A DNA stretch of 64,000 nucleotides, taken from positions 9,693 through 73,692 of the forward strand of contig JADLEG010000183.1 in assembly GCA_020846275.1 (NCBI GenBank), in the 5' to 3' direction. Each line of letters starts with the position of its first letter. Position 1 is the first letter of the stretch. The position numbers and the translations under genes are program-made. The notes beneath the pieces were generated by a model. That model saw only the letters and a list, made by a program, of their open reading frames with translations, made no database searches and had not been told where the DNA came from. The stretch is from Alphaproteobacteria bacterium (GTDB lineage Bacteria; Pseudomonadota; Alphaproteobacteria; JAEULC01). Below are positions 2,403 through 59,262 of this stretch, piece after piece.

Positions 2403-3290
2403 TCAGCCGCCGTCGAGCGGCCGCACCGTGACCGCCACGTCCAGGCTGTGCGTACCGCCCCCCAGGATGACCCCGCGCAGCGGCGTCACGTCCGAGAAAT
2501 CGCGGCCATAGGCGACGACGATATGCTCGTCGCGCACGACAAGGTCGTTGGTTGGATCGAAATCCACCCAGCCCAGCGCCTCGCCGCACCAGGCCGACAC
2601 CCAGGCATGGCTGGCGTCGGCGCCGCGAAGCCCGGCCGCATCGGCCGGCGGATAGGTGCGGATGTAGCCCGATGCGTAGCGCGCGGGCAGGCCAAGCCCC
2701 CGCAGCCCGGCAATCATCAGGTGGGCGAAGTCCTGGCACACCCCGCGCCGCGTCTCCATCACGCGGGCCACCGGCGTCGAGATGTCGGTCGAACCCGGCA
2801 CGTAGGCGAACTCGCGCCGAATGCGGGCCGTCAGGTCCCGCAGGCCGGCGACGATGCCCCGCCCCGGCGCAAAGGATTGCGCGGCGAAGGCGGTCGATGC
2901 CGGCTCGCGCCCGGCCTGCGGCGAGTTGTAGGCGAATTCGGCCACCTCCGGCCGCGCGGGGAACCCGTCCGCGCCGATCGACGCCGCGACCTGCGCCCAG
3001 GCCTCGCCTTCCGGCAGGTCCGCCGGATCGGCGCGCGCGACATCAACATCGGCGTCCAGGGTCACGCTGAACGTGTCGTGTCCCGCCTCGATCGCGACGT
3101 GGTGGACCGCATTGCCGAAATGGTCGCGGAACGCCACGTTGCGCGACGGTTCGGGCGCGATCCCCAGGCGATAGTCGAGCAGACGCTGCCCGATCACCGC
3201 CAGCGGCGTCAGTCGCAGCAGGTGCAGGCCAAGGTCGACCGTCGCGCCATAGGCGTAGCGCGTCTCGTGGCGGACGGCGTAGCGCGTCAT
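2403..3290 (-). CDS. transglutaminase-like family protein (small, about 295 aa)
   Basis: The N-terminus MTRYAVRHETRYAYGATVDLGLHLLRLTP is the typical bacterial transglutaminase-like N-terminal region, followed by the TGase core (…CQDFAHLMIAGLRGLGLPARYASGY…). The ORF-track N-terminal extension of 174 aa in a GC-junk frame was rejected. The ATG at 3290 overlaps the stop of the upstream gene (ATGA). Confidence 0.8.
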   Translation of the reverse strand: MTRYAVRHETRYAYGATVDLGLHLLRLTPLAVIGQRLLDYRLGIAPEPSRNVAFRDHFGNAVHHVAIEAGHDTFSVTLDADVDVARADPADLPEGEAWAQVAASIGADGFPARPEVAEFAYNSPQAGREPASTAFAAQSFAPGRGIVAGLRDLTARIRREFAYVPGSTDISTPVARVMETRRGVCQDFAHLMIAGLRGLGLPARYASGYIRTYPPADAAGLRGADASHAWVSAWCGEALGWVDFDPTNDLVVRDEHIVVAYGRDFSDVTPLRGVILGGGTHSLDVAVTVRPLDGG

Positions 3291-5776
3291 GCCGGCAAGG
3301 TCTCGCGCGCGGGGCGCGGCGCGAAGCCGAGCGGATGGGCCGTCACGACGTGCGAGAAATAGGTGTGGGTGATCATCTCGGACAGCGCCGTCAGGTCGCC
3401 GGCGATGCGGTCGAGCATCTCGACGACGGGCCCGACCGGCATGGCGTCCTGCACCTTCTCCACGCTCTCGACCGAGAAGTCCATCACCGTGCGGATCAAC
3501 TCGCGCACCAAGGTGCGCGCCGCCTCGAAGCCCGGCGACGGGGCCAGGGTCTCGATGAAATCGCGCAGGCGCACGATCTGGAACATCAGCGCCCGCGGGT
3601 TGCTGGCGTCCGCCACCACCAAGTCGAGCGCGCGCGCGGGGTGCAGCTCGGTCGGATAGCGGGTGCGGTACGTGATGGTGGAATCGCAGAGTTCGAGCGC
3701 CAGGCGCAGCCCGATCTCGAGCTGGGCCGCCGGGCCGCGCAGCACCGGCGCCAGCGTGTTGGCGATCGCCATGCCGCGTTCGATCCGCCGGCCGATGTCG
3801 AGAAAGCGCCACCCCGCGCCGCGCGTCATGTTCTCGGCCGCCAGCCCGGCGAAGGCGGCGATGCCGCGGATCAGGTCATCAAGCGCATCGAGCAGCCGGT
3901 CCATGTCGCCGTCGGCCGCGACCAGCTGCCCGCGCACCTCGTCGAGCAGATGGTTGAGGGTACGCCACATGTCGAGCGACAGGCGGTCGCGCACCGTGAA
4001 CGTCAGGCGCCGGATCGCGTCCAGGCAATCCTGCACCACGCCCTCCGGCGCCGTCGCGGCCTTGGCGATGCCGCCGGCGAAATTGCGGCCGTCCACGGGC
4101 GAACCGGCGATGGTCGCGCTGATCCACCCGTTGCGCTGCATGGCGCCGGCCAGGCGCGCAAGCTCGGCCATGTCGCGCGGGCCGAGCCCGCCGCCGGTCA
4201 GCCGGTTCATCACCGCGCGGAATACGCGCGCGGCGGCGTCCAGGCGCTCGACATAGCGGCCGAGCCAGAACAGGTCGTCGGCGACGCGGCTTTGCAGCGC
4301 GCCGGCGGACCGGTGCGCCCTGGCCGGCGTCATCGGCGCCGAGGGCGTGCGGACATCCTGTTCCTCCGTGGTCAGCACCCAGACGTCCTTGGCGACGCCG
4401 CCATGCAGCAGGCGGCTGCGGTACATGTCGTCGGCCTCGACCACGCGGGCCACGCCGCCGGGCATCACCGACCATTCGGACCCGTTCCACAACGCCACCA
4501 CGCGCAGCACGATCGGGCGCGGCGACAGTCCGTCCTTGCCAAGATTGGGCGCGACGCCGTGCACCACGCGCTCCAGCGCCACGAAGGCCTCGGGGTCGGC
4601 CGTCAGCCGGGCCAGCAGCCCCGCCTGCTCGTCGCGCGACAACCCGGCCGGGTCGACCGGCTTCTGGCCGGGATCGAAGGTCGGGCGGATCACGTAGGAG
4701 CCGAGCGACGCGCGAACGGCGTCGATCGCCGCCTTCTGCCCGCACCACCACGTCGTCACCGCCGGCAGCTTCAGCTCCTCGCCGAGCAGCCGGCGCGCCA
4801 GCGAGGGAAGGAACGGCGCGATCGCCGGCGTCTCGACCAGCGCCGATCCCGGCAGGTTCAGGATCGCAACCTTGCCGGCGCGCGCGGCATCGACCAGCCC
4901 GGCGACGCCCAGCGCCGAATCCTCGCGCAGCTCCAGGGGGTCGCAATACTCGCCGTCGACCCGGCGGTAGATCACGTCGACGCGCAGCAGCCCTTCCAGC
5001 GTCTTCAGGTACACGACATTGTCGCGGACCGTCAGGTCCGAGCCTTGCGCCAGGGTGATGCTGAGCTCGCGCGCCAGGTAGACATGCTCGAAATAGGCGT
5101 CGTTGTAAGGGCCGGGCGTCAGCAGCACGGCGCGCGAATCGTCGCCGTGATGCATTCCCAGGCGCTGCAGGCTCGCCTGCCACACATCCAGGAAGGGCTG
5201 CAGCCGGCGCATCGGGTAGACGCGGAAGGCCTCGGGAAAGGTTCGCGCCAGCAGGCGGCGGTTGCGCAACGCGTAGCCGACGCCCGACGGCGCCTGGGTG
5301 CGATCGGCGAACACGCGCCAGCCTCCGTCCGGCATGCGCACCAGGTCGGCGGCATAGACCTGCAGGTGCCCGGCGCCGCCGGCCTGGCCGACATGGCGCA
5401 TCGGGCGCAGGAACGCGGGGTTGGCATAGACGAGATAGGGCGGGACCAGACGGTCGGCGATCAGGCGCTGCTCGCCGTAGAGATCGGCCAGCACGAGGTC
5501 GAGCAGGCGGGCGCGCTGCGCCAGACCCTCGGCAATGACCCGCCACTCGTCCTCGGGCAGGATCAGCGGCAGCAGGTCGATCGACCACGGCGCGCGCTTC
5601 GGCTCCCGGCCATAGATGGCGACGAACTCGTCGGCATGCGCCAAGTGCGCGCCGGCGCGCGCCTGCTTCTCGGCGAGCTGCGCCGGCGGCATGCCCCAGA
5701 CCGTCGCCATGATGTTGCGCCAATGCGGCCGCAGCGCACCCTGGCCGGTTGCCATCTCGTCGTAGGCCGTGCTCAT
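3287..5776 (-). CDS. circularly permuted ATP-grasp (type 2) protein fused to an alpha-E domain (DUF404/DUF407 + DUF403-like), about 829 aa
   Basis: The N-terminus MSTAYDEMATGQGALRPHWRNIM is typical of CP-ATP-grasp-2 proteins. The C-terminal half resembles alpha-E domain proteins. I chose the ATG at 5776. The ORF track starts at a TTG at 5875, which is a possible alternative. Confidence 0.75.
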   Translation of the reverse strand: MSTAYDEMATGQGALRPHWRNIMATVWGMPPAQLAEKQARAGAHLAHADEFVAIYGREPKRAPWSIDLLPLILPEDEWRVIAEGLAQRARLLDLVLADLYGEQRLIADRLVPPYLVYANPAFLRPMRHVGQAGGAGHLQVYAADLVRMPDGGWRVFADRTQAPSGVGYALRNRRLLARTFPEAFRVYPMRRLQPFLDVWQASLQRLGMHHGDDSRAVLLTPGPYNDAYFEHVYLARELSITLAQGSDLTVRDNVVYLKTLEGLLRVDVIYRRVDGEYCDPLELREDSALGVAGLVDAARAGKVAILNLPGSALVETPAIAPFLPSLARRLLGEELKLPAVTTWWCGQKAAIDAVRASLGSYVIRPTFDPGQKPVDPAGLSRDEQAGLLARLTADPEAFVALERVVHGVAPNLGKDGLSPRPIVLRVVALWNGSEWSVMPGGVARVVEADDMYRSRLLHGGVAKDVWVLTTEEQDVRTPSAPMTPARAHRSAGALQSRVADDLFWLGRYVERLDAAARVFRAVMNRLTGGGLGPRDMAELARLAGAMQRNGWISATIAGSPVDGRNFAGGIAKAATAPEGVVQDCLDAIRRLTFTVRDRLSLDMWRTLNHLLDEVRGQLVAADGDMDRLLDALDDLIRGIAAFAGLAAENMTRGAGWRFLDIGRRIERGMAIANTLAPVLRGPAAQLEIGLRLALELCDSTITYRTRYPTELHPARALDLVVADASNPRALMFQIVRLRDFIETLAPSPGFEAARTLVRELIRTVMDFSVESVEKVQDAMPVGPVVEMLDRIAGDLTALSEMITHTYFSHVVTAHPLGFAPRPARETLPA

Positions 5777-5887
5777 CGCCTGTCCGCGCGGGCCCTGCCC
5801 GTCCTGGCCGAAGTGGCTGATTCGCGTGGACAAAGTGTCGCCGATCGGCCCGCCAAATTCCAGCGCAGGCGCCAAAGCCGCCTGCCG

Positions 5888-8800
5888 CTAGGTCGCGTGG
5901 CGCAGGTCCAGCGTGACGGGGTGCTCGCCGGCCGGAACGGCGATTCGCGCCTCGTAGGATGCCGGCGTATGCCCGATCGCGAAGAAGCGCGCCCGCCGGC
6001 GCGTCTCGGCCTCGTTGGCATTGACCGGAAACCGATCGAAATTGCGCCCGCCGGGATGGGCGACATGGTAGGTGCAGCCGCCGACCGCGCGCCCGTTCCA
6101 GGTGTCGAACAGGTCGAACACCAGGGGCGCATCGACCGGGATCGTCGGGTGCAGCGCGCGCGGCGGCTGCCAAGCGCGATAGCGCAGCCCGGCGACATAC
6201 TCGCCTCTCCGCCCGGTTGCGCGCAGCGGCACCGTGCGCCCGTTGCAGACCAGCACGTGGCGCTCCTCGGTGGCGCCGCTCAGCTTCACCTGCATGCGCT
6301 CGACCGAACTGTCGACGTAGCGCACCGTGCCGCCGGCGCCGGCATCCTCGCCCAGCACGTTCCACGGCTCCAGCGCGTGGCGCAGCTCGATCTCGATGCC
6401 GCGATAGGCCGCCTGGCCGATCAGTGGAAAGCGGAACTCGTGATGCGCGGCGAACCACTGCGGATCGAGCGCGTAGCCGGCGCGCCGCAGATCGTCGAGT
6501 ACGTCGGCGAAGTCGTTGGCGACGAAATAGGGCAGCATGAACTCGTCGTGCAGCCGCGTGCCGTAGCGCATCAGCCGGCGGTCATAGGGCTGGCGCCAGA
6601 ACGTCGCCAGCAGCGCGCGCAGCAGCAGTTGCTGCGCCAGGCTCATGCGCGCGTGCGGCGGCATCTCGAAGGCGCGCAGTTCCAGCAGGCCGCGACGGCC
6701 GGCGGCGCCGTCGGGCGAGTACAGCTTGTCGATGCAGAACTCGGCGCGGTGCGTGTTGCCGGTCACGTCCACCAGCACGTCGCGCAAGGCACGGTCGACC
6801 AGCCAGGGCGGCGGCGTCTCGGCGCGCTCCAGCGCCTTGAAGGCCAGCTCGAGCTGGTAGGTGGCGTCGTCGCGACCCTCATCGACACGCGGATGCTGGC
6901 TGGTCGCGCCGATGAACAGCCCCGAGAACAGGTAGGACAGCGAGGGATGGTTGTGCCAGTAGCCGACCAGGCTCCTTAGCAGGTCCGGCCGGCGCAGCAG
7001 CGGCGAGTCCGCCGGGGTGGAACCGCCGATCACGATGTGGTTGCCGCCGCCGGTGCCGACATGCCGGCCGTCCAGCATGAACTTCTCGGTCACCAGCCGC
7101 GTCGCGCGCGCCTCCTCGTAGACCGTGGTCGTATTGCGGACCAGTTCGTCCCAGGAGTCGGCGGGATGGACGTTGACCTCGATCACGCCCGGATCCGGCG
7201 TCACCGAGAAATGGTTGAGCCGCGGGTCGAAGGGCGGCGGGTAGCCCTCGAGAATCACCTTCTCCCCGCGATCGCCCGCCACATCCTCGACCGCGGCGAG
7301 GAGGTCGAGATAGTCCTCGGCCATCTCGACGGGCGGCATGAAGAGATGCAGCAGCCCGTTGCGCACCTCGGCGCACAGCGCGGTCCGCACGACATCGCTG
7401 GCCGACCAGCCCTGCAATGGCTTCAGCGGCGCCTGCTCGCGCCGTCCCTGCGGCGCCGCGTTGGGACGCACACCGTTTCGCGGCTCGCCGCGAGGCGCCT
7501 GAAATGCCTGGCGCGGCGGCAAGCCCCCGCGCGGCGCCATCGGGTCGGTCGGGTAGACATAGGGGTAGTCGCTTTCCTGGACCCAGGGCAGCGAGTCGAG
7601 CGGCAGGCGATAACCCATCGGCGAGTCGCCGGGGATGAGGAACATGGTGTCGGAGCGGAAGAACCATCGCCCGCTGCGCCAGTAACGCTGGCCATTCGTG
7701 CCCGCGCGGGCCAACGGCAAGGCGTAGCCGACGATCGCGTCCAGCCCCTGCTCGAACACCCGCGCCAGGCGCTCGCGCTCCAGAGGGTCGTGCAACTCGC
7801 TCTTCAGCGGGTCGACGTTGACCGGCAGCCGGCGCTCCTTCCACAGGTAGTACCAGGCGTCCTCGTAGCCCGCCGTGCAAAACGCGGGGTCGACCTGCAG
7901 CCGCTCGGCCAGTTGCGAAATGAAGCCGCGCGCGTCGTCGTGCGTCAGCCGGCCGTTGGTGTCCTCGTCCGACGCGAACAGGCGCTTGTCGCGCCAGACC
8001 GGCTCGCCATCGCGCCGCCAGTGGCAGCCCAGCGCCCAGCGCGGCAATTGCTCGCCCGGATACCACTTGCCCTGGCCGTAGTGCAGCAGGTAGCCGCCGG
8101 CGAAACGGTCGGCCAGGCGACGCAGCAGGCGGCCGGCATAGCGCCGCTTGGTGGGGCCCAGCGCGTGGGTGGTCCACTCGGCGCCGTCCGGGTCGTCGGC
8201 GGCGACGAAGGTCGGCTCGCCGCCCATGGTCAGCCGCATGTCGGCCGCCGCGATGTCGGCGTCCACCTTGCGGCCGAGCGCCAGCAGGCCCTGCCACTTC
8301 GCATCGCTGTAGGGCCTGGTGATCCGCGGCGCCTCGTCGATCCGCGTCACCGACATGCGGAAATCGAGGGTCGATTTCGCCTTCTCGATCGAGCCGGTGA
8401 TGGGCGCGGCGCTGCCGGGCTCGGGCGAGCACGCCAGCGGAATATGCCCCTCGCCTGCCATCAGTCCGGACGTGGGATCGAGCCCGATCCAGCCGGCGCC
8501 GGGCAGGTAGACCTCGCACCACGCATGCAGGTCGGTGAAATCGGCGATCGGGCCGACGGGGCCGTCAAGCGGCTTCTCGTCGGCGACGAGCTGGATCAGG
8601 TAGCCGGACACGAAGCGCGCGGCCAGGCCAAGATGGCGCAGCATCTGCACCAGCAGCCAGCCGCTGTCGCGGCACGAGCCCTCGCGCTTCGCCAGCGTTT
8701 CCTCGGGCGTCTGCACGCCGGGCTCCAGACGCACGATGTAGCCGACGTCGCGCTGCACGCGCTGGTTCAGCTCGACCAGGAAATCGATCGTCCGCCGCGG

Positions 8801-9211
8801 CCGGCGATCGACGCCGTCGAGGTAGCGCTGGAGCAACGGCCCCGGCTCGGCCGCCCGCCGGAACGGCGCCAGCTCCTCGTCCAGCACGTGGTCGTATTCG
8901 AACGGACAGGTCTCGGCCGCCGGCTCGAGGAAGAAATCGAACGGATTGATCACCGCCATGTCGGCGATCAGGTCGACCGTGAAGCAGAGCCGGTCCGTCC
9001 TTTCCGGGAACACGAACCGCGCCAGGTAGTTGGCCTGGGGATCCTGCTGCCAGTTGATGAAGTGCTGGGCTGGCTCGGCCTTCAGCGAATAGGCGAGGAT
9101 CGGGGTCCTGGAATGCGGGGTCGGCCGCAAGCGCACCACCTGCGGCCCGACGCCGACCAGCCGGTCGTAGCGATATTCCGTGCGGTGATGCAGCGCGACA
9201 TGGATTCCCAC
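5888..9211 (-). CDS. large transglutaminase family protein (Bact_transglu_N + transglutaminase core + DUF2126-like C-terminal region), 1107 aa
   Basis: The N-terminus MGIHVALHHRTEYRYDRLVGVGPQVVRLRP is the Bact_transglu_N signature. The length and architecture match the ~1100-aa proteins that co-occur with CP-ATP-grasp/alpha-E genes. GTG start with a GAGGGGAG Shine-Dalgarno sequence upstream. Confidence 0.8.
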   Translation of the reverse strand: MGIHVALHHRTEYRYDRLVGVGPQVVRLRPTPHSRTPILAYSLKAEPAQHFINWQQDPQANYLARFVFPERTDRLCFTVDLIADMAVINPFDFFLEPAAETCPFEYDHVLDEELAPFRRAAEPGPLLQRYLDGVDRRPRRTIDFLVELNQRVQRDVGYIVRLEPGVQTPEETLAKREGSCRDSGWLLVQMLRHLGLAARFVSGYLIQLVADEKPLDGPVGPIADFTDLHAWCEVYLPGAGWIGLDPTSGLMAGEGHIPLACSPEPGSAAPITGSIEKAKSTLDFRMSVTRIDEAPRITRPYSDAKWQGLLALGRKVDADIAAADMRLTMGGEPTFVAADDPDGAEWTTHALGPTKRRYAGRLLRRLADRFAGGYLLHYGQGKWYPGEQLPRWALGCHWRRDGEPVWRDKRLFASDEDTNGRLTHDDARGFISQLAERLQVDPAFCTAGYEDAWYYLWKERRLPVNVDPLKSELHDPLERERLARVFEQGLDAIVGYALPLARAGTNGQRYWRSGRWFFRSDTMFLIPGDSPMGYRLPLDSLPWVQESDYPYVYPTDPMAPRGGLPPRQAFQAPRGEPRNGVRPNAAPQGRREQAPLKPLQGWSASDVVRTALCAEVRNGLLHLFMPPVEMAEDYLDLLAAVEDVAGDRGEKVILEGYPPPFDPRLNHFSVTPDPGVIEVNVHPADSWDELVRNTTTVYEEARATRLVTEKFMLDGRHVGTGGGNHIVIGGSTPADSPLLRRPDLLRSLVGYWHNHPSLSYLFSGLFIGATSQHPRVDEGRDDATYQLELAFKALERAETPPPWLVDRALRDVLVDVTGNTHRAEFCIDKLYSPDGAAGRRGLLELRAFEMPPHARMSLAQQLLLRALLATFWRQPYDRRLMRYGTRLHDEFMLPYFVANDFADVLDDLRRAGYALDPQWFAAHHEFRFPLIGQAAYRGIEIELRHALEPWNVLGEDAGAGGTVRYVDSSVERMQVKLSGATEERHVLVCNGRTVPLRATGRRGEYVAGLRYRAWQPPRALHPTIPVDAPLVFDLFDTWNGRAVGGCTYHVAHPGGRNFDRFPVNANEAETRRRARFFAIGHTPASYEARIAVPAGEHPVTLDLRHAT

Positions 9212-9405
9212 GTGGCGGGGCTCCCCTCAACCTGACGACTTAGGTCCAGGGTAGCAATTCCGAGGCCATTGCGCCTTTCCGACACACGGGCGGAACCCCG
9301 GCCACCGGGTGCCCAAATTTAAGGCGCTTTGGAACGGACCTGTGACACAATACCGCCTCGGGCTGATAGGCTGCGGCACAACGTCAAGAAAGAGGGATCC
9401 GATCC

Positions 9406-9963
9406 ATGGCCGAACGCATCGTCTTTCGTACCGGAGAAGCACTCGTGGCCGGCGGGCCGCCGAACACCGCCGCCGAACCGGAGGTCGTGATCGGTGCGCT
9501 GGACGGACCCGTGGGCACGGCGATCGCCACCCAGCTTGCCGGCCAGGTGAAAGGTCACAGCCGGGTCTTCGCCATCCTGAACATCGACGTCCAGGTTCGC
9601 CCCGTGACCTTGATGGTCAGCAAGGTGACGGTGCAAGGGCCGAAGGCGCTCAAGTACACCAACATCCTCATGGGCACGGTGCAGGCCGCCATGGCCAACG
9701 GCGTGCTGGACGCCGTTCGCGCCGGCGACATTCCCAAGGACCAGGTCAACGATCTCGGCATCATCTGCGCGGTATGGCTGGCGCCGCAGATCGTCGACGT
9801 CGCGGACCTCGACCACCGCAAGCTGTTCGACATCCATCGCGAGGCCATGGCCAAGGCGATCCGAAAGGCGATGCGCCACGAGCCCACGATCGACTGGCTG
9901 TTGGCCAACCAGGACAAGATCACGCACAAGTATTTCCAGATGGGCCTCGACAAGCAGATCTGA
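9406..9963 (+). CDS. formaldehyde-activating enzyme (Fae) family protein / Fae-like
   Basis: 185 aa. It aligns along its length with Fae (5,6,7,8-tetrahydromethanopterin hydro-lyase): GEALVAGG…EVVIGALDGP…, …LMVSKVTV…, …AAMANGVLDAVRAGDIPKDQVNDLGIICAVWL…. Confidence 0.75.
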   Translation: MAERIVFRTGEALVAGGPPNTAAEPEVVIGALDGPVGTAIATQLAGQVKGHSRVFAILNIDVQVRPVTLMVSKVTVQGPKALKYTNILMGTVQAAMANGVLDAVRAGDIPKDQVNDLGIICAVWLAPQIVDVADLDHRKLFDIHREAMAKAIRKAMRHEPTIDWLLANQDKITHKYFQMGLDKQI

Positions 9964-56655: not shown

Positions 56656-58569
56656 CTACGAGTTCTCCGCGGCCGACAGCCTCGCCAACGTCGTGATGCG
56701 AGCGGCAGACGCAGAGGGTGCGGCATACTCGATCGTCCCAATGATCGCTGCCGTGCTACCATTTTCGTGCAGATCGGCGACGCACGCTCCCGCTTCGGCT
56801 TGGCGAACACCGGCAAGGAGACCGCCTGCGGTCTGGGGATCGAACAGGAGCGCCAGGGTGGCTGGGTCCGCTTCGCCGTCGATCAAGCCGCGGAGCGAAA
56901 GATTCTCGGGCAGCAGGGTCGATGCGATGCCCTGGCCGACCAGGGAAAGGGCTTCGGGCAAGACGGGAATGGCGGATAGGTCGAGCCGGGCATCGCAGCC
57001 GCTTGCCGCCAGCATCTCGCCGAGATGCCCCGCCAGGCCGAACCCCGACACATCGGTCATCGCGGTCGCCCCGTGGGCGATCAGGATCTCCGCCGCCCGG
57101 CGGTTCGACCGTCGCATCTCCGTCAGGGCCGCCTCAATCGCCCGCGCTGACGTTCGGCCACGCATGGCGCCCGCAAACAAAATCCCGGTGCCGAGGAGCT
57201 TGGTCAGGATCAGCGCGTCGCCCGGCTTGAGGCCGCCCTTGCGAAGGGCGGAACCGGGTGCCAGCTCGCCCGTGACCGAGAAGCCCAGCGCCAGTTCGGG
57301 GCCTTCGCTGGAGTGACCGCCGACCAGCGCGACGCCCTCGCGGTCCAGGCAGGCGCGGGCGCCGGCGAGCACCTGGAACAGCGCCTCCTCCACCTTCGCC
57401 GCCGGCCCCGGTGGCACCACGCCGATCGCCAAGGCATAGCGTGGCAAGCCGCCCATGGCGTAGACGTCGCCCAGCGCATGATTGGCGGCGCAGCCGCCAC
57501 AACGCATTTCCGGCGGCGGAGAGGCGGTGCCCGCGGCCGGCCGCTGCTTCGCCATGCGCGCTGTCAGCCGCCCGGTGTCCTGGTACATCCGCATCCAGCG
57601 CCGGTCGATCCAGTCCTTGAGGGTCCAAACCCAGGCGCCCTCGGCCTTGAACCAGCCGCGCGACGCAACCGCACGGCGCTCGCCCGTGGAGATCAGGGCC
57701 AGGTGACGCTGCTGCGGCGTCCAGGGGCGCGGGGGGTTGCCGCGGGCACGCCGCCGCAGATTGGCCGCCAATGGCGGTCCCGCCCGTACGGCGAAAACGC
57801 CCGCCTTCGGGCGCGGCGTTTCCACCAGGGCCGCGCAATCGCCGGCGGCGAACACGTCCGCATCGCCGAGACTCTGCAGGGTCGGCCCGGCCGCGAGGAA
57901 CCCCTGCGGGTCAAGCACCAGGCCGGTGTCGCGAAACCATGCCGGCGCCGCCGCGTGCGTGGTCACCAGCACCGCATCGGCCGGCAGGCTCGGGCCGTCC
58001 GCAAGGTCGATCAGGCCGGCCCGCAGCGCCCGCACCTTGCAGCCTTCATGCAGCGCCACGGCGCGGCTCTGCAGGATGCGGCGGAACGCGTCGCGGACCT
58101 TCGGGTCATGCGAGGCAAGGATCTCGCCGTCCGTGACCAGGGTGAAGGCGAACGCCGCGCGGTCCTGTCCCGCCGCGTCAGCATCCGCGAGCAGGCGCGA
58201 GCGCACGGATAGCAGCAGCTCGACTCCGCCCGCGCCGCCGCCCACGACTGCGATCCGCCGCGGCCCCGCAAGGTCCCGGCACCGGGACCGCAGCGTCTCG
58301 AACTTCGCCAGGAACGCGCCGATCGGCTTGACCGCGATTGCGCACTGGGCAGCGCCAGCGATCTGTTCCAGGGCCGGTTCGATGCCCACGTCGATCGACA
58401 ACAGGTCATAGGCGATCGGCGGTCGCCCTTTCAGCAGCACGCGCTTTTCAGCACGGTCCAGCCCGACTGCCTCGGCGTGGATCAATCGCGCGCCGGCGAC
58501 GGCGGTCAGGCGCAGGAGGTCGAGGCGTTTGCCCGCGGCGACGGGTTCACCGTCTACGCCAACGCGCAA
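56656..58569 (-). CDS. NADH-dehydrogenase-like (pyr_redox) domain fused to SelD-like (selenide, water dikinase/PurM-fold) domain; apparently degenerate
   Basis: The C-terminal ~300 aa matches SelD (VYAMGG, VGGHSSEGPE, LTKLLGTGIL, AMTDVSGFGLAGHLGEM, FDPQTAGGLL). It lacks about 60 aa between the Cys motif and the FAMGG-equivalent. The N-terminal half is NDH-2-like with the NAD Rossmann IAVVGGGAGG and GDCA, but has no first FAD GxGxxG. An in-frame stop lies immediately upstream of the TTG start. Confidence 0.65.
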   Translation of the reverse strand: MRVGVDGEPVAAGKRLDLLRLTAVAGARLIHAEAVGLDRAEKRVLLKGRPPIAYDLLSIDVGIEPALEQIAGAAQCAIAVKPIGAFLAKFETLRSRCRDLAGPRRIAVVGGGAGGVELLLSVRSRLLADADAAGQDRAAFAFTLVTDGEILASHDPKVRDAFRRILQSRAVALHEGCKVRALRAGLIDLADGPSLPADAVLVTTHAAAPAWFRDTGLVLDPQGFLAAGPTLQSLGDADVFAAGDCAALVETPRPKAGVFAVRAGPPLAANLRRRARGNPPRPWTPQQRHLALISTGERRAVASRGWFKAEGAWVWTLKDWIDRRWMRMYQDTGRLTARMAKQRPAAGTASPPPEMRCGGCAANHALGDVYAMGGLPRYALAIGVVPPGPAAKVEEALFQVLAGARACLDREGVALVGGHSSEGPELALGFSVTGELAPGSALRKGGLKPGDALILTKLLGTGILFAGAMRGRTSARAIEAALTEMRRSNRRAAEILIAHGATAMTDVSGFGLAGHLGEMLAASGCDARLDLSAIPVLPEALSLVGQGIASTLLPENLSLRGLIDGEADPATLALLFDPQTAGGLLAGVRQAEAGACVADLHENGSTAAIIGTIEYAAPSASAARITTLARLSAAENS

Positions 58570-58586
58570 GCCCTGCGGAATGCATC

Positions 58587-58844
58587 ATGACCGCAGCCGC
58601 GGAGAAGCTGGTCCGCATGGCTAACCAGATATCGCGCTTCTTCACGTCCTCAGGCGAAACCCAGGCCATCGCCGACACGGCCGACCACATCGTCAAGTTC
58701 TGGGACCCGCGGATGCGCGCCCAACTGCTGGCACACGTGGACGCGGGTGGTACGGGGCTGGACCCTGTGGCGCTGCAAGCGGCCAAGGATTTGGCCAAAC
58801 GAAGTTTGGCCAAAAAGCCGTTGCCCACGACCGCGTGCAACTAG
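58587..58844 (+). CDS. formate dehydrogenase delta-subunit (FdsD)-like small protein
   Basis: 85 aa. …LVRMANQISRFF…IADHIVKFWDPRMRAQLLAHVDAGGTGLDP… matches the FdsD family pattern. There are no other fds genes in the window. Confidence 0.6.
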   Translation: MTAAAEKLVRMANQISRFFTSSGETQAIADTADHIVKFWDPRMRAQLLAHVDAGGTGLDPVALQAAKDLAKRSLAKKPLPTTACN

Positions 58845-58963: not shown

Positions 58964-59055
<92 letters not shown>

Positions 59056-59262
59056 GCACCTCTCCGCGGGGCTCCGCCGGCCCGCCCCGATTGCAGGGGC
59101 CGGCCCGGGGCTGGCGAGCGGCGGAACCTAGCCAAGACCGCGCCCGCTCGCAAGCGCGATTGCCCTTTCGCCCTGGATTCTATAGACAACCGGCGCTGCC
59201 GCGGCCTTGGCGAGAGGCCCGCGGGGCCATTCCGGCCCCGTCCCGGCGCATGGACGCGAACC

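Follow-up and report, generated by a model that had tools for sequence, protein, structure and literature searches.

Does an intact open reading frame (ORF) mark a working gene, a gene with a new role, or the remains of a lost one? This question is raised by an ORF of 637 amino acids (aa) with a TTG start at 56656..58569, minus strand, in the 64-kb stretch of alphaproteobacterial DNA analyzed here (the window). Its product resembles a fusion of an NDH-type oxidoreductase with selenophosphate synthetase (SelD) from which two segments are missing. Among the fused forms of bacterial SelD, Ndh-SelD fusions are the commonest, and a CxxC in their active-site loop is characteristic (Zhang et al. 2008, PMC2398784; Mariotti et al. 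2015, PMC4561486). Comparisons with homologs and with near-identical strains make it very probable that the ORF is a recently inactivated pseudogene of such a fusion, disabled by two deletions. The extent of the homologous part and of its two domains is as follows.

56656..58524, minus strand: homologous part of the Ndh-SelD fusion remnant, residues ~16-637 and the stop (partial Pfam and NCBIfam matches, 62-72% identity to full-length fusions)
~57583-58524, minus strand: oxidoreductase domain remnant
~56659-57507, minus strand: SelD-like part

An earlier note on this DNA had described the ORF as an NDH-type domain joined to a SelD-like PurM-fold domain, and profile matches and homologs bore this out. 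In Pfam, Pyr_redox_2 matched residues 29-262 of the ORF (profile positions 69-289 only) and AIRS matched residues 357-435 (profile 35-111 only), with a further match to AIRS_C. In NCBIfam, TIGR03169 ('Nterm_to_SelD') scored 332.1 bits against a cutoff of 310, at model positions 57-365 only, and TIGR00476 (selD) scored 207.2 bits against a cutoff of 125, at model positions 77-310 only. Since both halves exceeded curated cutoffs, these scores indicate descent from the Ndh-SelD fusion family, and not function. A search of 5.8 billion proteins returned thousands of two-domain homologs, and the best among the matches listed showed 62-72% identity and were almost all 745-750 aa long. The 637-aa protein itself is identical to MCC6470180.1 (NCBI), from an alphaproteobacterial metagenome-assembled genome (MAG). 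The two-domain architecture is similar to that of TIGR04369 ('oxidoreductase/SelD-related fusion protein', fusion_not_SelD), yet membership in this family was ruled out, the score of 342.3 bits being far under the cutoff of 700. This suggests that the ancestor was of the true-SelD type.

We then aligned the window protein with its homologs, once with ten and once with 117 of them. Between RCGGC/AA and AANHAL, 65 columns were gapped in the window protein; the earlier note had put the loss between the Cys motif and the FAMGG-equivalent, Asp residues included, at about 60. By alignment, the lost segment holds the equivalents of Lys20, Asp51 and Asp68 of E. coli SelD. Of these, Lys20 is an essential residue of the E. 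coli enzyme, and the two Asp are ligands of metal/ATP in SelD crystal structures. These equivalents, which belong to the PurM-type N-domain and would be expected in a functional SelD, are absent from the remnant. The sequence RCGGCAA is kept, and with it the CxxC (CGGC) of the SelD active-site loop and the Cys17-equivalent. Residues 358-611 of the remnant align with residues 81-332 of E. coli SelD (PDB 3U0O; E=1.5e-32). The NHALGD motif, which carries the N87/D91-equivalent, and the C-terminal domain are kept as in the E. coli and Aquifex aeolicus (2YYE, 2ZOD, 2ZAU) proteins, whereas the equivalents of E. coli residues ~21-85 are deleted and the N-terminal loop is reduced to its Gly/Cys part.

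57482..57489, minus strand: junction of the internal deletion, where GCCGCCAA is present once, against two copies 65 codons apart in homologs (DNA comparison)

At this junction the window reads TGC GCC GCC AAT CAT, whereas three homologs (L014, L030 and L037) read TGC GCC GCC AAG at the Cys-loop and ATC GCC GCC AAY 65 codons downstream. The single repeat copy in the window against two in the homologs shows an in-frame deletion of 195 bp (65 codons) between two 8-bp direct repeats, GCCGCCAA, and a repeat-flanked loss of this kind is a signature of replication slippage or microhomology-mediated deletion. The event took the catalytic Lys and the two Asp ligands of the ATP/metal site, and left the CxxC cysteines in place.

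Could the protein still work as a SelD, with the missing loop and Asp ligands either supplied in trans by a split gene or dispensable? The scores above the TIGR00476 and TIGR03169 cutoffs and the retained Cys17-equivalent would agree with this. However, the missing N-terminal and internal segments, sought throughout the 64-kb window, are encoded nowhere in it, the roles of Lys20, Asp51 and Asp68 argue against a dispensable segment, and the frameshifted sister alleles described below speak against any required function. We therefore regard a working SelD as extremely unlikely.

The second defect lies at the N-terminus, where the ORF runs into the end of another gene on the opposite strand.

58528..58569, minus strand: first 14 codons of the ORF (TTG start), antisense of the fdsC tail (no fusion-family homology; the plus strand matches the FdsC C-terminus)
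58525..58590, plus strand: 3' remnant of fdsC (FdhD family), AFARGDGFTVYANAQALRNAS and stop (FdsC C-terminus profile, tblastn)
58587..58844, plus strand: fdsD, formate dehydrogenase delta subunit, an orphan (Pfam FdsD, PF11390, 8.5e-25)

In the alignments the window protein showed an N-terminal gap of about 51 occupied columns, plus 14-16 non-homologous leading residues. The first ~65 residues of the family are lost, including the FAD-binding Rossmann motif GGGHAHVH. Homology to the family begins at (R)LDLLRL, which is family residue ~67, and residues 1-16 differ from the family at every near-invariant column. The oxidoreductase domain is incomplete also by profile, TIGR03169 being matched from position 57 and Pyr_redox_2 from position 69, and the match to the NDH-2 structure 4NWZ starts at its residue 75. 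Further on, the protein still has its second Rossmann motif (VVGGGAGG) as well as the CxxC motif and an entire C-terminal domain of the PurM type. Absence of the N-terminal GxGxxG Rossmann motif, as claimed in the earlier note, was thus confirmed by the alignments and the partial profiles. So were its coordinates for the start region: an in-frame stop lies upstream of the TTG (58585-58587), and a spacer of 17 bp (58570-58586) separates the TTG from the ATG of the divergent fdsD (58587). Alignment with full-length fusions and with E. coli SelD, which the note had proposed, showed exactly the two defects that it had described, both segments being gapped, and the same truncations were seen in no other lineage among 120 listed and 40 genomic homologs.

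The DNA upstream of the ORF is fdsD and fdsC coding sequence on the opposite strand. Bases 58525-58587 of the plus strand encode AFARGDGFTVYANAQALRNAS, and the TGA that follows overlaps the fdsD ATG as ATGA. We constructed a 45-position profile hidden Markov model from 49 distinct FdsC C-termini, taken from 80 metagenomic fdsD loci, and ran it with filters off on all 1361 six-frame pieces of the window. There was one significant match, the AFARGDGFTVYANAQALRNAS peptide (E=9.3e-4), and the next best had E=2.3. By tblastn, the remnant showed 10/18 identity to FdsC residues 247-264 of 275. It follows from these matches that the 637-aa ORF opens with 14 codons of antisense fdsC tail and that the N-terminal deletion junction lies at about 58524/58525. 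The frame that the TTG 'start' and these codons keep open on the antisense strand is fortuitous. No sigma-70-like promoter was found on the minus strand upstream of the ORF.

The fdsD gene matched FdsD (PF11390) with 87.3 bits (cutoff 27) and has 918 homologs; the public annotation of 58587-58844 is 'formate dehydrogenase subunit delta'. All three annotated fdsD relatives lie in an fdsG-fdsB-fdsA-fdsC(FdhD)-fdsD operon in which fdsC overlaps the fdsD start. The window shares with the fdsGBACD operon of the Cupriavidus/Rhodobacter type the PF11390 fdsD and the overlapping stop/start with an FdhD/FdsC-like tail, but here fdsD is preceded only by the fdsC tail of ~21 codons, without fdsG, fdsB, fdsA or an intact fdsC, and it is an orphan. 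It is probably also a functionless leftover, without fdsGBA partners in the window. Its sequence is 100% identical across all sampled strains, which is uninformative at such divergence.

The simplest explanation would be the loss of fdsGBAC and of the 5' part of the fusion gene in one deletion. Such a large deletion would have its right end in the last ~21 codons of fdsC (codon ~255) and its left end at about codon 65 of the fusion. With it the fusion gene would have lost its promoter, start codon and FAD-binding Rossmann motif, and in the same event fdsG, fdsB, fdsA and most of fdsC would probably have gone, orphaning fdsD. From the operon sizes in two fdsD loci (L054 and L056), its size would be at least 6 kb. 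The fusion gene and the fds operon would then formerly have been divergent neighbors, an ancestral gene order that we infer only, as none of the relatives in the searched collections has an intact syntenic locus. The earlier note had proposed a rearrangement that placed both fdsD and a tRNA-Ser beside the fusion. Neither part of this proposal held: fdsD is itself a leftover, with the fdsC 3' remnant between it and the fusion, and the tRNA-Ser is a separate, strain-variable insertion site outside the junction.

We then compared the window with near-identical strains. The same remnant DNA recurs in a 158-kb JGI contig (L001) and, across different runs, in about ten Logan assemblies, and three of these relatives carry further lesions.

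58053..58059: 7-bp frameshifting deletion in L001 (JGI) and L052 (SRR14932522) (strain comparison)
57621: extra 1-bp deletion in L052, a second frameshift (strain comparison; fragments P0123 and P0124)
57590: breakpoint in L044 (SRR32609464), where homology to the window stops and the SelD-like half to the left is replaced

The 7-bp deletion splits the ORF of L001 into 183 and 459 aa. Over 12.4 kb, 16 substitutions and one indel separate L001 from the window, and 5 of the 16 substitutions as well as the indel fall in the 1.9-kb remnant. The remnant of L052 differs from that of the window by the 7-bp deletion, the 1-bp deletion and 19 substitutions. In L044 the replacement is unrelated DNA of 62% GC with an FCD-domain regulator; at 57590 the remnant passes into L044:1-521, which encodes the C-terminus of this GntR-type regulator. 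Two other runs yielded contigs that begin near this breakpoint, at 57591 and 57596, which suggests that the L044-type haplotype co-exists in several samples.

Nonsynonymous and synonymous substitutions between the window and L052, and the ratio of their rates (dN/dS), were as follows.

Fusion remnant: 12 nonsynonymous to 7 synonymous, dN/dS ~0.67
Adjacent OYE-like reductase: 2 to 6, dN/dS ~0.11
Binding-protein gene: 0 to 3, dN/dS 0 (dN = 0)

The contrast between the remnant and the flanking genes gave p=0.026 in a Fisher exact test, and the elevated dN/dS agrees in direction with the frameshifts. Purifying selection with an intact frame among close relatives is not what was found here, given the frameshifts in L001 and L052 and the partial loss in L044. 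The remnant is not maintained by selection. Its retained residues, with the 16 non-homologous leading residues excluded, showed one deviation at ~200 family columns that are >=97% invariant. We had tested for an excess of change at conserved positions, as would follow from long-term decay, and rejected such decay on this count; the single deviation indicates that inactivation was recent. Taken together, the alignments, the frameshifts and larger loss in near-identical strains, and the relaxed dN/dS agree with the decaying remnant suspected in the earlier note.

The note had also offered a neofunctionalised remnant. In this reading a truncated product would be expressed from the TTG and kept for a new role, for example as a catalytically inactive SelD-like protein that binds or regulates, or as a module for NAD(P)H binding. 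The window strain and contigs identical to it keep the ORF open, VVGGGAGG, CxxC and the whole C-terminal PurM-type domain are retained, and conserved positions have diverged very little, all of which would fit such a role. The evidence given above is set against it: near-identical strains with independent frameshifts or without the SelD half, a dN/dS of ~0.67 against ~0.1 in flanking genes, no promoter-like site in upstream DNA that is fdsD/fdsC coding sequence on the other strand, 14 leading codons that are antisense fdsC, and the lack of these truncations in other lineages, over 120 listed and 40 genomic homologs. Neofunctionalisation therefore remained unsupported and is, in our estimate, very unlikely. 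The more specific form of this proposal, in which the window strain keeps a dead SelD-like/NAD(P)H-binding protein in a new role and the sister frameshifts are losses of a secondary function, we consider very unlikely.

A third alternative is that the deletions or the fdsD junction arose by misassembly or binning. The source is indeed a MAG, and contigs from several samples break nearby, at 57590 and ~59000. However, identical junctions and the identical internal deletion were present in the NCBI MAG, in JGI 3300013121, in Logan SRR11294031 and SRR14932522, and in others, from different projects, and an artefact is hardly credible.

Several observations weigh against a pseudogene formed by these two deletions. 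The window strain and about nine identical Logan contigs have an uninterrupted frame of 1.9 kb. The single deviation at ~200 near-invariant columns, while fitting a recent loss, leaves room for residual constraint, and the dN/dS contrast comes from small counts, 19 versus 11 substitutions. With only ~20 residues the fdsC remnant is short, and a 49-aa peptide covering it, too short for such searches, gave no FdhD match in Pfam or PDB. As to the former neighborhood, 40 genomic loci with full-length fusions (<=68% identity) had no flanking genes in common with the window, and the fusion gene was within 10 kb of none of 82 fdsD loci.

What the gene did before its inactivation is suggested by the neighborhoods of its full-length homologs. 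Two of these lie at the end of a cluster with the order formate dehydrogenase (FdoH/FdoI-type)-fdhE-selA-253-aa gene-selB-two small ORFs-fusion, and a third is near molybdenum-cofactor genes. The fdh-fdhE-selA-selB-fusion clusters imply that the family, and with it the ancestor of the remnant, acts in the selenocysteine pathway as a true SelD and is linked to formate dehydrogenase. We searched for selenium and formate dehydrogenase genes across the 64-kb window, and found in it no selA, selB, selU/ybbB, fdhE or small partner ORFs and no tRNA-Sec. The annotated genes of the window, for the most part those of ABC transporters and catabolic enzymes, include no catalytic subunit of formate dehydrogenase. 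The lineage has probably given up SelD-dependent selenium use. With the published Ndh-SelD fusions (PMC2398784, PMC4561486), in which an NADH dehydrogenase-like COG1252/TIGR03169 domain precedes a Cys-type SelD, the remnant shares the domain order and the CGGC, but it has 637 aa rather than ~750, lacks ~65 N-terminal and 65 active-site residues, has no sel-gene neighbors, and in sister strains carries frameshifts or has lost a part.

The locus is a recent non-functional relic of a lost selenium/formate-dehydrogenase locus, and the ORF is a pseudogene of a well-known family, not a new kind of protein. The label 'selenide, water dikinase SelD' in the MAG record would wrongly mark the organism as a selenium user in trait surveys based on SelD; in annotation, the 637-aa ORF needs a pseudogene flag and fdsD an orphan flag. 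The locus also provides a small case study of a selenium-related gene and an NAD-dependent formate dehydrogenase operon lost together, with stages of decay in co-existing strains.

The tRNA gene beyond fdsD was considered separately.

58974..59065, minus strand: tRNA-Ser(CGA), strain-variable insertion site, outside the junction (ARAGORN)

A mobile element at this tRNA as the direct cause of the truncation was considered and rejected, since fdsD and the fdsC tail separate the tRNA from the junction. A second copy of the tRNA-Ser 3' end was sought in the 64-kb window and not found. L001 matches the window only to 59033, inside the tRNA-Ser, and continues past it (L001:1-638) into DNA of 62% GC with a 157-aa ORF without a Pfam match. 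The ends of nine Logan contigs, which come from different runs, all fall at 58985-59000.

Conserved small ORFs without a recorded Pfam match precede full-length fusion genes in other genomes. A pair of 154 and 132 aa was found in five loci (L139:6129-6978; L004, L005, L014 and L031), and in L139 and one similar cluster it lies between selB and the fusion. A different ORF of 155 aa stands before the fusion in four loci (L138:6491-6958; L013, L015 and L018). These small ORFs upstream of the fusions may encode uncharacterised partners of fused SelD.

Elsewhere in the window, a gene for Fae (formaldehyde-activating enzyme) lies at 9370-9963, plus strand, in a region that has apparently lost its NAD-dependent formate dehydrogenase operon. 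A large two-gene cluster at 3287-9226, minus strand, encodes a 1112-aa transglutaminase-like/DUF2126 putative amidoligase and an 866-aa circularly permuted ATP-grasp and Alpha-E protein.

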